Assembly: GCA_023247445.1 (NCBI GenBank)
Contig: JAHFGL010000004.1
Span: forward strand, 1,520-65,519
From: Candidatus Omnitrophota bacterium
GTDB taxonomy: Bacteria; Omnitrophota; Gorgyraeia; Zapsychrales; Zapsychraceae
Direction of reading: 5' to 3'
DNA length: 64,000 nt
Both the position numbers and the translations under genes were made by a program. The notes below the pieces were generated by a model. That model saw only the letters and a program-made list of their open reading frames with translations. It searched no databases and had not been told where the DNA came from. Positions 36,018-41,207 of the stretch are shown piece after piece (position 1 is the first letter of the stretch; each line of letters starts with the position of its first letter).

Positions 36018-36037
36018 TTTCTATTTCTGTCCTTAGT

Positions 36038-36064
36038 TGTCCTACCTTGTCCCATTGACAATCC
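36038..36064 (+). promoter_or_regulatory. conserved upstream motif tgtcctaccttgtcccattgacaatcc with palindrome TTGTC-N4-TGACAA overlapping a -35 TTGACA (putative -10 TATCTT 17 bp downstream)
   Basis: Near-identical motif at 38535..38560 upstream of the third PEP-CTERM gene. Confidence 0.45.
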
Positions 36065-36121
36065 TCTTCTTATAGATTATCTTTCATCTATCTTTCAAAT
36101 TATTAGATTTGCGTAAAGCCA

Positions 36122-37249
36122 ATGAAAAAAACCTTAATTTATTTATGTTTTAATTTATTCCTTTTGGGGAGTTCGCTTCCTGCCTATGCCGGGGGAGGAC
36201 TGCCACCAGGGCCAAATTACAACAATCTTGATTTTACGGACTTTGTGGTTTTTGGCGGCGGGCATACTATTTTAGGCCGTGGAGTCAGCGCTGATGATAA
36301 TGAACCCGATGATCCAGATGATCCGATTATTATTAACGGAGCCTTGGTTGGTAGTAATGGCAATATTGAAGTTCGTGGTAAATCTCAAACCGAGGCCATT
36401 GTTACCAATGGTGATATTTTGCTTGGTAATCATGTGAGAGTAGATGGGGATGTGATTGTTAATGGGGATGTGGATTTAAATCTCGATGCTCAAGTTGGTG
36501 GTGATATTGAGGCGGGAGGGAAGGTTCATTTAGGAAGACATTCAGTAGTTTCTGGCGATGTCACCGCGGGTGGTGATATTGATTTAGAAAAATTTTCTAG
36601 CATTGGTGGAACAGCTTCAGAATTTAGCACGCCGCTAACCTATTCACCTATTACGTTACCCCCTTCAACAGCCTTTGGAATAGGTACTCTCGATGTGACG
36701 AAAGGCTCAGGTAATACAACAACACTTTTACCGGGATCATATGATGATATTACTTTGGGAGCTTCCAATGTTTTGAATCTTCAAGGCGGCAAATATTATA
36801 TGGATAATCTTAATTTGGGAGAGTTTAGTACAATTAATATTGATCTAACTAGCGGCGAGTTTGAAATGTATGTTCTTCATGATGTAACGATTGGACGATA
36901 TACGAATATGTTTTTAACCGGTGGCGAAGCTGATCAAGTTTATATAGAGGTAGGAAGAAAATGGCTTTCGCGAGGCCATAGCAATCTTTATGGGACTGTT
37001 TTTTCACATGGTGATTTGCAGATTGGTCGAAAGACAAATTGGACGGGCGCATTATATGCCGGGGATGTCTTAAGAATTCGCGGAGGAAGTAATATCAATT
37101 TTGATTTATATTGTGGTTTTGAAGGGGATTTAGCTTGTGAGGATGTACCACCACAGACATCAGCTGTTCCTGAACCGACGACGATCGCTTTATTGGCCTC
37201 TGGTTTATTGGCCGCCTCAAGATTAAAGAAATTGAAGAAACTTGCCTAA
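36122..37249 (+). CDS. PEP-CTERM protein, paralog 1: signal peptide, bactofilin-like beta-helical repeats, ice-binding-like (DUF3494-like) C-terminal half, PEP-CTERM anchor
   Basis: C-terminus SAVPEPTTIALLASGLLAASRLKKLKKLA. Repeats GDVIVNGDVDL.. / GDIEAGG / GDVTAGGDIDL. Blocks LYGTVFSHGD...TGALYA. Confidence 0.8.
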   Translation: MKKTLIYLCFNLFLLGSSLPAYAGGGLPPGPNYNNLDFTDFVVFGGGHTILGRGVSADDNEPDDPDDPIIINGALVGSNGNIEVRGKSQTEAIVTNGDILLGNHVRVDGDVIVNGDVDLNLDAQVGGDIEAGGKVHLGRHSVVSGDVTAGGDIDLEKFSSIGGTASEFSTPLTYSPITLPPSTAFGIGTLDVTKGSGNTTTLLPGSYDDITLGASNVLNLQGGKYYMDNLNLGEFSTINIDLTSGEFEMYVLHDVTIGRYTNMFLTGGEADQVYIEVGRKWLSRGHSNLYGTVFSHGDLQIGRKTNWTGALYAGDVLRIRGGSNINFDLYCGFEGDLACEDVPPQTSAVPEPTTIALLASGLLAASRLKKLKKLA

Positions 37250-37318
37250 TATTATGTTTTATCTTTTAGCCATCGATACATTCTAGGAATATAAATTAAG
37301 AAAATATAAAGGTTAAAA

Positions 37319-38455
37319 ATGCGAAAATTTTTATTGCTAAGCTATTGTTTTATTTTGGCTTCGGAATTGTTGACTAGTCGTGTTTATGCTGGCGGAAGTC
37401 TCCCACCACCATCACCATCAACCTCAACAAACGTTGCCCTTGACTTCACTGATTTTGTGGTGTTTGGTAACAACCGCGTTGTAATTGGCCGGGGCGTTGA
37501 TTTGGATGATGAAGTTATCGATCCCGATGATCCAGATGATTTGACAACAATTAACGGTGGGAATTTGGGAAGCAATAGAAATCTTTATACTTATGGCCGT
37601 ACCCAAACAGAAGGAATTTTTGCTGGGGAAGACTATCATGCTGGACGGGAAATTCAAGTTGATGGAGATATCGTTGCGAATAGTGAAGTAAGAATTTATT
37701 CAGATAGTCATATTGCTGGTGATATTGATTCCGGTGGAGATTTATATCTTGGATCACGTACGAATGTTGGAGGTGACATAACGGCCGCAGGCGACATGTT
37801 TTTGGGAACGGGAATTGTGATTGGTGGAACTCAAGCATCGGGTGGCACTCCAGATGTTTATGTCCCAGTGACACTTCCTCCACAAACGGTTTTTGGTGCA
37901 GGGGCAGTTGATGTTAGGTCGGGTTCAAATGAAACTGTTACGTTATTGCCAGGAAGCTATGATGATGTTCTTTTGGGATCATATAATGTTCTTAATCTCA
38001 CTTCTGGTAAATATTATTTAGATTCTTTTCATCTAGGAGCTTATAGTATTATTAATTTAGATTTGAGTGGAGGGAGTTTTGAGATGCATCTTGTTCGAGA
38101 TGTAAAACTCGGACGATATACAACAATGTTTTTAACGAATGGAACACCAGATCAAGTTCTTTGGGATGTAGGCACGAGTTGGCATTCTTATGGGTATGCG
38201 ACTCTTTATGGAACTGTTTTTGCTCAAAATGATATTGTGATTGGCCGGGGCAATAACATTACTGGAGCACTTTATGCCGCGGATCAGATACATATCTATG
38301 GAAATAGTGTGATTAATTTTGATTTGTATTGTGAACTTACACATGCTGGATGCGATGACCCTCCAATAACAAGCGCTGTTCCTGAGCCAGGAACGATGGC
38401 GTTGTTGGGATCTGGCTTGCTTGGGGCATTTAGATTTCGAAGAAAGAAAACGTAG
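37319..38455 (+). CDS. PEP-CTERM protein, paralog 2 (same architecture)
   Basis: C-terminus SAVPEPGTMALLGSGLLGAFRFRRKKT. Shared blocks GGSLPPP, DFTDFVVFG, DDPDDP, TLLPGSYDD, LYGTVFAQND, TGALYA. Confidence 0.8.
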   Translation: MRKFLLLSYCFILASELLTSRVYAGGSLPPPSPSTSTNVALDFTDFVVFGNNRVVIGRGVDLDDEVIDPDDPDDLTTINGGNLGSNRNLYTYGRTQTEGIFAGEDYHAGREIQVDGDIVANSEVRIYSDSHIAGDIDSGGDLYLGSRTNVGGDITAAGDMFLGTGIVIGGTQASGGTPDVYVPVTLPPQTVFGAGAVDVRSGSNETVTLLPGSYDDVLLGSYNVLNLTSGKYYLDSFHLGAYSIINLDLSGGSFEMHLVRDVKLGRYTTMFLTNGTPDQVLWDVGTSWHSYGYATLYGTVFAQNDIVIGRGNNITGALYAADQIHIYGNSVINFDLYCELTHAGCDDPPITSAVPEPGTMALLGSGLLGAFRFRRKKT

Positions 38456-38486
38456 TAGGAAAAATATTAGATTTTGGGTTTAAAAT

Positions 38487-38520
38487 AAAGCAGATTACTT
38501 AAATGTAATCTGCTTTATTG
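38487..38520 (+). terminator. rho-independent-like hairpin aaagcagattac-ttaaat-gtaatctgcttt
   Basis: 10-12 bp perfect stem. Near-identical hairpin recurs after paralog 4 (41129..41168). Confidence 0.55.
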
Positions 38521-38534
38521 GTTGTGTCCAACAG

Positions 38535-38560
38535 TGTCCTACCTTGTCATATTGACAACC
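38535..38560 (+). promoter_or_regulatory. second copy of conserved upstream motif tgtcctaccttgtcatattgacaacc (perfect palindrome TTGTCA-TAT-TGACAA over the -35 hexamer; -10-like TATCCT 17 bp downstream)
   Basis: Direct comparison with 36038..36064. Confidence 0.45.
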
Positions 38561-38729
38561 TTGTGTTCATAGTTTATCCTTTCACTAATTCATTCAAAGA
38601 GTCATAAATAAATTAGACAAATTGTTGGTGTTCTTAATCGACAATATCCGATGTTGTTATCTTGACAGTTTTTAGATAATATTTTATGCTTTGCCACATT
38701 TCAAAATTAGTATAAAGGGGCGAGAAATA

Positions 38730-39875
38730 ATGAAGAAAATTCTATCAACAATTTTTATTTTAGGTTTATCGATTTTGCTGCCAATGACAGCGCATGCCGG
38801 TGGGGGTCTCCCTACACCAAGCGCACCAGCGACGACGGATTTTACATTTAGCGATTTTGCTGTCTTTGGTGGAAATCGTGTTGTTCTTGGTCGTGGTATT
38901 GATGCCTCTGATGATGATCCAGATGATGTTACGCCTGAAGATCCAAATGATCCTATCATTGTAAACGGTGGGAATATTGGAAGTAATAACAATATTCACG
39001 TTTATGGAAGAACTGATACTGAGAGTATTGTGGGAGGCGGACGATTTGTAGGAGGGCATAGGATCGATGTCAATGGGGATGTTATTTTTAATGAAAATGT
39101 ATTGATTTATGGGAATAGTCATATTACTGGGGATGTCCAAGCTGGAGGAGATTTAACACTTGGTCGTGAGATCACCGTTGGTGGTGATGTAACGGCCGGT
39201 GGAAGCATTAATTTAGGGCCTTTTGATTCTATTGGAGGGGCAGTAACCGCAAACGGAACACCTACAGTTTTTTCCCCAGTTAGTTTGCCTCCAGAAACAG
39301 TATTTGGCCATGGAACTGTCGATGTTCGCACGGGAGATTATGCTACAACAACGCTTTTACCAGGGTCCTATGATGATCTGATTATGGGAGATCACAATGT
39401 TCTAAATTTGTCAGCAGGGAAATATTATATTGATCGTTTACGCATGCTTTCAAGTAGTATCATTAATATTGACCTTTCGGGTGGATCTTTTGAACTTTAT
39501 GTGACCAATGGTGTTTCTCTTGGTCGATATATGGATATGAATTTGATTAATGGTTCAGCTGAAGATGTTTATATTGAAACCAACAATTGGCATAGCTATT
39601 CTTATGCCACTTTATATGGCACAATTTTTGCCCATAATAGTATTGTTGTTGGACGTAAAACTCATCTCACAGGGGCTCTTTATGCAGAGAATGGTATCCA
39701 TGTTTATGGTGGATCGCGTATTGATTTTGATTTAGCCTGTCATCTTGATTCTGACCAGGAACAGTGTCAACCCCCGCCAACAACATCAGCTGTTCCTGAA
39801 CCCGCCTCGATGGCTTTACTAGGTTCTGGTTTATTAGGGGCATTTGGATTAAGAAAAAAGAAAGCTAAAGCATAA
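38730..39875 (+). CDS. PEP-CTERM protein, paralog 3
   Basis: C-terminus SAVPEPASMALLGSGLLGAFGLRKKKAKA. Internal start at MKKILST after RBS aaagggg. Confidence 0.8.
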   Translation: MKKILSTIFILGLSILLPMTAHAGGGLPTPSAPATTDFTFSDFAVFGGNRVVLGRGIDASDDDPDDVTPEDPNDPIIVNGGNIGSNNNIHVYGRTDTESIVGGGRFVGGHRIDVNGDVIFNENVLIYGNSHITGDVQAGGDLTLGREITVGGDVTAGGSINLGPFDSIGGAVTANGTPTVFSPVSLPPETVFGHGTVDVRTGDYATTTLLPGSYDDLIMGDHNVLNLSAGKYYIDRLRMLSSSIINIDLSGGSFELYVTNGVSLGRYMDMNLINGSAEDVYIETNNWHSYSYATLYGTIFAHNSIVVGRKTHLTGALYAENGIHVYGGSRIDFDLACHLDSDQEQCQPPPTTSAVPEPASMALLGSGLLGAFGLRKKKAKA

Positions 39876-39910
39876 TAAATTTAAAAATTTAGTCTTTGAT
39901 AAGTAATAAA

Positions 39911-39948
39911 AATAGTGGATTTCAAAAGAATCCACTATTTTTATTATT
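39911..39948 (+). terminator. hairpin atagtggatt-tcaaaaga-atccactat followed by a T-rich tract
   Basis: Read directly. Immediately downstream of the paralog 3 stop. Confidence 0.5.
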
Positions 39949-39979
39949 TCCTAAATTATTATTAAATAATACTAAAAAA

Positions 39980-41098
39980 ATGATGAGAAAGTTTATTGTA
40001 ATACTTTATATGGTTAGCTTTATGTTGGCTTTTCCTATTTATGCCAATGCTGGGGGAGGATTACCATCTCCAAGTTCTACTACAGATTTTACCATTAGTG
40101 ATTTTGTTGTCTTTGGTAAAAATTCCGTTGTTATTGATCAAAATGTTGATGTCACAGGCGGAACAGTTTCTACGACCAGCGGTCCATTAGTCGGCAGTAA
40201 CGGTGATGTTACTCTATGGCAAGGGGTTCAATCCCATGGTGTTGTAGGTGGGGATGATCTTGTCATTGGATCTGATGATGTTGATGTTTACGGTGATGTG
40301 GTTTTTAATGGTGATGTCCAAGTTTATCAAGACAGCCAGATCCATGGTGATGTTGATGCGGGCGGCAATGTCAATACAGGTTCAAATGATTATTTTGGTG
40401 GGGATATTACAGCTGATGGCACAATCACTCTAGGGACTCTCACAAGCGTGGTAGGAGCGGTCACACCCAATGGTAACCCAGATACTTATTCCCCGGTAGC
40501 TTTGCTCCCAGAGACAAGCTTTAGTGCGGGAACCTTGTCATCCCAAGATAGAAATATCACAGGATTTAATGCCTCGCTTAATCTTGCCCCAGGGACCTAT
40601 CGAGATGTGAGTTTTAATCGGCCTAATGCGACTTTAAACCTGACCTCAGGAACGTATTATTTACGTAATTTAACGATGCCGGTAGATAGTATTATTAACA
40701 TCAATTTAAGTGGCGGAGATTTTAAGTTGTATGTGCTTCAGGATATATCTCTTAATCACGATGTTAATATGTTTTTAGTCAATGGAACAGCAGATGATGT
40801 TTATATAGAAGTTGCTCATAATTGGTTTTCTGGTGAACGAGATACGTTTTATGGAACAGTTTTTGCCCATAACGATATTACAGTTAATGCCAGTTCCCAT
40901 GTGACAGGGGCGCTTTATAGTGAACATAATATTTTTATTGGTCGTGACTCAGTGATCAACTGTGATGTTTATAATAATGATGATGATTGCAATGGACCCG
41001 ATGTCGTCACGCCTTCAGAGGTTCCCGAACCAGCAACGATGGTGTTATTAGGATCTGGTTTACTTGGGGCGCTTGGATTTCGAAGAAAGAAAGTTTAA
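39980..41098 (+). CDS. PEP-CTERM protein, paralog 4 (more divergent N-terminal half)
   Basis: C-terminus SEVPEPATMVLLGSGLLGALGFRRKKV. Start at MMRKFIV. Confidence 0.8.
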   Translation: MMRKFIVILYMVSFMLAFPIYANAGGGLPSPSSTTDFTISDFVVFGKNSVVIDQNVDVTGGTVSTTSGPLVGSNGDVTLWQGVQSHGVVGGDDLVIGSDDVDVYGDVVFNGDVQVYQDSQIHGDVDAGGNVNTGSNDYFGGDITADGTITLGTLTSVVGAVTPNGNPDTYSPVALLPETSFSAGTLSSQDRNITGFNASLNLAPGTYRDVSFNRPNATLNLTSGTYYLRNLTMPVDSIININLSGGDFKLYVLQDISLNHDVNMFLVNGTADDVYIEVAHNWFSGERDTFYGTVFAHNDITVNASSHVTGALYSEHNIFIGRDSVINCDVYNNDDDCNGPDVVTPSEVPEPATMVLLGSGLLGALGFRRKKV

Positions 41099-41128
41099 CT
41101 AGGGAAATATTATTAGGATTTAAAAAAT

Positions 41129-41168
41129 GAAGCAGATTGCTTAAATGTAATCTGCTTTATTTTTTTTG
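41129..41168 (+). terminator. rho-independent terminator gaagcagattgc-ttaaat-gtaatctgcttt + T8
   Basis: Homologous to the hairpin after paralog 2, so the duplication included the 3' flanks. Confidence 0.6.
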
Positions 41169-41207
41169 CTTGTAACTTTTTATTTTCAAAGTAGAATAAC
41201 CCCAGTT

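Follow-up and report, generated by a model that had tools for sequence, protein, structure and literature searches.

Four tandem genes for PEP-CTERM beta-solenoid proteins remotely related to DUF3494 ice-binding proteins

Analysis of a 64 kb stretch of DNA (hereafter the window) confirmed a locus of four diverged paralogs (G1-G4), which are consecutive + strand ORFs that can be aligned over their full length and share 39-56% pairwise identity. As the best explanation of the locus as a whole, we consider it probable that these genes encode variants of an exported, acidic, ~325-residue right-handed beta-solenoid protein that is sorted by an exosortase and has an adhesive or structural role in the matrix, and that within the DUF3494 (ice-binding-like) superfamily they fall into a branch that lacks the helix and is extended at the N-terminus. 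The locus is real and fairly ordinary: its genes belong, as uncharacterised members, to a large family with many database entries, and the system is not of a new kind. Although PEP-CTERM proteins abound in environmental bacteria, a function is known for almost none of them, and the substrate of DUF3494-like solenoids outside icy habitats has so far not been identified. With its four variants, its clear sorting signals, and a candidate operator that is unusually well conserved, the locus is a compact, well-modelled example on which exosortase-dependent display could be tested and the ligands of non-ice DUF3494 relatives sought.

Gene set and sorting signals

The features of the locus are listed in Table 1. 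A preliminary description had given the four paralogs lengths of 375-400 aa; the paralogs themselves stand, whereas plausible ATG starts give proteins of 372-381 aa, and the lengths of 394 and 400 aa result from taking TTG codons further upstream as starts. For G3, both the ORF list and an NCBI-type gene model use TTG 38691 instead of the ATG at 38730. Gene starts are over-extended in two cases in this locus, which is a recurrent annotation error.

Table 1. Genes and regulatory elements of the locus (positions in the window)
Feature	Position	Strand	Description
Promoter/operator copy 1	36028..36083	+	TGTCC at 36028, 36038, and 36048 (10-bp spacing); -35 TTGACA 36055-36060, 17-nt spacer, -10 TATCTT 36078-36083
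G1	36122..37249	+	375 aa; signal peptide (residues 1-23) and acidic beta-solenoid; pI 4.3 for the mature part; a pair of Cys close to the C-terminal cap; tail VPEP...RLKKLKKLA (PEP-CTERM)
G2	37319..38455	+	378 aa; architecture as G1; Ice_binding match at residues 120-331; protein modelled
Terminator after G2	38484..38519	+	15-bp stem, 6-nt loop, -20 kcal/mol, weak T tract
Promoter/operator copy 2	38525..38580	+	TGTCC at 38525 and 38535, TGTCA at 38545; -35 TTGACA 38552-38557, 17-nt spacer, -10 TATCCT 38575-38580
Further promoter-like site	38662..38690	+	TTGACA, 17 nt, TATGCT; inside the 172-nt G3 leader
G3	38730..39875	+	381 aa from ATG after AAGGGG ribosome-binding site; architecture as G1 and G2
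Terminator after G3	39901..39949	+	22-bp A/T-rich stem, -23.4 kcal/mol, z -8.0
G4	39980..41098	+	372 aa; most divergent paralog (40-47% identity); lacks DDPDDP insert
Terminator after G4	41122..41165	+	19-bp stem then T8 tract, -23.1 kcal/mol

All four proteins carry a signal peptide, read from the sequence as a K/R-rich n-region, a hydrophobic core, and AYA, VYA, AHA, or ANA followed by GGG. They also share the GGGLPxPS mature N-terminus, a DF(T/S)DF(V/A)VFG block, 18-residue GD(V/I) repeats (DNA period of 54 nt), the LLPGSYDD, YGT(V/I)FA, and TGALY blocks, and a C-terminal tail composed of VPEP, a hydrophobic segment, and RRKK; their pI is 4.05-4.33 and each contains two Cys. Nearly all blocks that had been described as common to the family were recovered, except that the acidic DDPDDP block is found in G1-G3 only and is missing from G4 and distant relatives. 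The PEP-CTERM assignment was borne out by curated cut-offs, which all four proteins passed for both PF07589 (22.6-33.6 bits; cut-off 20.7) and TIGR02595 (20.7-26.5; cut-off 16), and in the profile search no named PEP-CTERM subfamily reached its own cut-off for any of them. These four are the only PEP-CTERM tails in the window.

A PEP-CTERM/EpsH sorting model has been proposed (PMC1569441), and floc formation has been found to require the PEP-CTERM protein PepA (PMC9850573). In the mechanism that we envisage for G1-G4, the precursor would pass through the inner membrane via Sec and be cleaved after AxA, and the PEP-CTERM helix would then tether the protein with its RRKK cluster in the cytoplasm, until an exosortase whose gene lies in another part of the genome cuts at the PEP motif and the product reaches the cell surface or the exopolysaccharide matrix. 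In agreement with what had been noted before, none of the window's 47 ORFs with a length of 150 aa or more was identified as an exosortase; neither exosortase nor EPS genes were found in the 10 kb upstream, and the window itself also contains no EPS genes. Gram-negative envelope genes are located in or next to the window (OmpA-family, MlaE, RND/MFP efflux, AsmA-like, and TonB-dependent receptor genes), and the host, judged from its gene content, appears to have the outer membrane expected for a PEP-CTERM system.

Fold, remote homology, and possible functions

The solenoid fold suspected earlier is supported by two AlphaFold models of G2 (pLDDT 82.4 and 89.6), which are all-beta over residues 46-334, show the right-handed triangular beta-solenoid of DUF3494, and contain no alpha-helix between these residues. 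The solenoid spans ~290 residues in each paralog, and in G2 it includes a non-regular connector (residues 181-198; pLDDT ~96) with 4-5 prolines. The coil consensus, xxx[VI]xGD[VI]xAGGD[VI]xLGx, gives rise to Asp ladders and mixed outward residues, and no Thr/Ser row is seen in the consensus of the N-terminal coils.

The preliminary description had regarded these proteins as a combination of bactofilin-like repeats and an ice-binding-like half. The second part of this claim agrees with Pfam, in that G2 scores 30.1 against the Ice_binding (PF11999) cut-off of 28.7, although it is the only paralog above this cut-off (G4 27.5, G1 19.5, and G3 16.0), and a profile of 74 close members of the family reaches solved DUF3494 ice-binding proteins at E 5e-9 to 3e-7. 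The resemblance to bactofilin proved to be generic. Pfam Bactofilin (PF04519) gives 28.1 for G1 versus a cut-off of 27.9 and lower scores for G2 (27.5), G4 (25.9), and G3 (22.3), and the N-terminal half matches left-handed hexapeptide acyltransferases at E 7e-6, compared with E 3e-6 for bactofilin. As this segment fits left-handed hexapeptide enzymes no less well than bactofilin, the bactofilin signal comes from the repeat type rather than the family. In G2, the bactofilin match (109-158) is reported as falling inside the Ice_binding match (120-331). A fusion of a bactofilin with an ice-binding module was rejected in view of this inclusion, the equal matches to hexapeptide enzymes, and the export of the proteins.

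The family is large: its profile matched 5,401 cluster representatives with E <= 1e-3, of which 235 reached <= 1e-30. Among the 74 close members, PEP-CTERM was detected in 50, DUF7305 in 51, and bactofilin in 28. One relative carries a type IX secretion tail in place of PEP-CTERM, and such different sorting signals fit a surface module that is used with varied sorting tags. The DUF7305 (PF23981) matches cover the C-terminal half of the relatives, which corresponds to this Pfam domain; G1-G4 themselves gave no DUF7305 match in the Pfam search even at E <= 1. No function is known for DUF7305, and no mention of it was found in the literature searched.

By analogy, an adhesive or matrix role of G1-G4 is likely: each protein would form a rigid rod whose coil corners bear Asp ladders and would serve, in four sequence variants, as an adhesive or structural matrix component. 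A more far-reaching proposal, which we regard as rather unlikely, is that G1-G4 belong to an unstudied helix-less branch of the ice-binding superfamily with thousands of members, whose exosortase-delivered, Asp-laddered rods would bind cations or minerals, not ice, in a surface layer or matrix, with a dedicated regulator for the phased TGTCC repeats, interchangeable variants, and the better-conserved flanks as a trace of gene conversion.

Some DUF3494 proteins are known to bear PEP-CTERM, and substrates other than ice have been suggested for them (PMC7783341, PMC11645318). G1-G4 are unlikely to be genuine ice-binding proteins that PEP-CTERM displays at the cell surface and that, in the manner of Nostoc nIBP and the non-canonical DUF3494 proteins, inhibit the recrystallisation of ice or attach cells to it. 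Although the Pfam Ice_binding model matches (above its cut-off for G2), the proteins closest to them in structure have all been verified experimentally to bind ice, and extra N-terminal coils and PEP-CTERM also occur in non-canonical DUF3494 proteins (PEP-CTERM in 58%, one protein shown to bind ice; PMC11645318), they lack the alpha-helix kept by every canonical and non-canonical DUF3494 ice binder and display Asp ladders with mixed outward residues instead of the Thr/Ser rows of ice binders. Moreover, they show only a weak match to the active Aquiluna non-canonical DUF3494 protein (hhalign E 0.004, probability 8.5%, 57 columns), and DUF3494 relatives are common where there is no ice (PMC11645318).

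It is very unlikely that the proteins are secreted beta-helix polysaccharide enzymes (of lyase, epimerase, or depolymerase type) remodelling exopolysaccharide, as no enzyme family is significant by sequence, the residues that do not vary across the relatives (Gly, Pro, Tyr, Leu, and Thr) occupy structural positions, with only one acidic residue nearly invariant and no conserved acidic or basic cluster, and the narrow 18-residue triangular coils are devoid of the long loops that form pectate-lyase-like active-site clefts. A role as pilus-associated tip adhesins of ComZ or tapirin type is highly improbable: the N-terminal half has marginal sequence similarity to the Caldicellulosiruptor adhesin 4WA0 (E 2e-4), yet 4WA0, tapirins, and Thermus ComZ are pilus-associated or Gram-positive-type surface proteins with other sorting signals, and G1-G4 have an ordinary AxA signal peptide rather than a type IV pilin class III signal, no pilus genes nearby, and a PEP-CTERM tail that suggests a different sorting route.

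We give next to no credence to G1-G4 being bactofilin-type polymer-forming cytoskeletal proteins, a reading that draws on the 18-residue triangular right-handed coils (the coil period of bactofilin), marginal HMM matches, good local superposition, and the name 'CcmA, bactofilin family' given to relatives by one source, and that is essentially refuted by the export signals, since bactofilin is a cytoplasmic, ~100-residue polymerising domain devoid of such signals and the cleavable signal peptide and PEP-CTERM tail of all four proteins therefore place them outside the cytoplasm. Annotation of relatives as "bactofilin/CcmA" despite export is a recurrent error.

Promoter blocks, terminators, and duplication

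The 24-nt core TGTCCTACCTTGTCNNATTGACAA is present in exactly two copies in 64 kb, at 36038 and 38535 (0 expected). Recurrence of an upstream motif before G1 and G3, as described previously, thus holds. The palindrome (imperfect TTGTCC-CAT-TGACAA in copy 1, formed by the last repeat and the -35; TTGTCA-TAT-TGACAA in copy 2) belongs to a longer array, of which it is the 3' end: three TGTC[C/A] units in direct orientation with exact 10-bp spacing. Three phased direct repeats plus the -35 therefore describe the candidate operator better than a simple palindrome does, and TGTCC repeats placed once per helical turn and abutting the -35 would have the layout of a winged-helix response-regulator site. 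No DNA-binding response regulator was found in the window or 10 kb upstream. A sigma-54 -24/-12 element was likewise absent from the intergenic regions of the locus (in-gene matches are YGT[VI]FA codons), and a neighbouring TPR protein scores 32 bits versus the 312-bit PrsT cut-off.

The near-identical terminators reported after G2 and G4 were recovered (38482-38526 and 41124-41168; 89% identical, unique in the window, z about -8). A G3 terminator hairpin, overlooked in the preliminary description, equals these two in strength. There is no terminator between G1 and G2, which are therefore probably co-transcribed. Transcription would begin at the two sigma-70-type promoter copies, and the three intrinsic terminators would define the units G1-G2, G3, and G4; no promoter could be recognised for G4 itself, whose expression may depend on read-through or on a promoter that escaped recognition. 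That a two-gene unit was duplicated, as put forward earlier, is suggested by the flank arrangement only: the protein tree of G1-G4 lacks resolution, G2-G3 is the closest pair, and the G3-specific terminator has no counterpart after G1.

Comparison with known systems

G1-G4 resemble the PEP-CTERM/exosortase cargo (Haft 2006, e.g., PepA) in the signal peptide, in PEP, a transmembrane helix, and a basic tail at the extreme C-terminus, and also in paralogous expansion within one lineage and a conserved upstream cis-element (PMC1569441, PMC9850573). However, PEP-CTERM genes were reported to form mostly single-gene units (PMC1569441), whereas those of the present locus are in tandem, with G1 and G2 probably sharing a transcript. 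Proteobacterial PEP-CTERM genes regulated by PrsK/PrsR/PrsT have sigma-54 (-24/-12) promoters and an enhancer ending in TTTACA, while the promoters here are sigma-70-like with TGTCC repeats.

With the DUF3494 ice-binding proteins ColAFP (3WP9), AnpIBP (7BWX), IBPv (5UYT), and SfIBP_1 (6BG8), the four proteins share a first coil of F-A-V-F-G type, C-terminal G-T-I-F-A ... T-G-A-L blocks, and a signal peptide, and Nostoc nIBP, a DUF3494 protein, has a PEP-CTERM tail as well (PMC7783341). They differ in having a Pro-rich strap (TPxxYxPxxLPPxT) between two coil sets without the defining helix, about six additional 18-residue coils, and an Asp-rich repeat surface in contrast to the Thr/Ser-rich surface of ice-binding proteins. 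The non-canonical DUF3494 proteins (Raymond 2024, PMC11645318) are similar in their frequent PEP-CTERM and partial recognition by the DUF3494 model, but they keep the helix that G1-G4 lack, have Thr-rich coils of AITTGA type, and come mostly from icy habitats.

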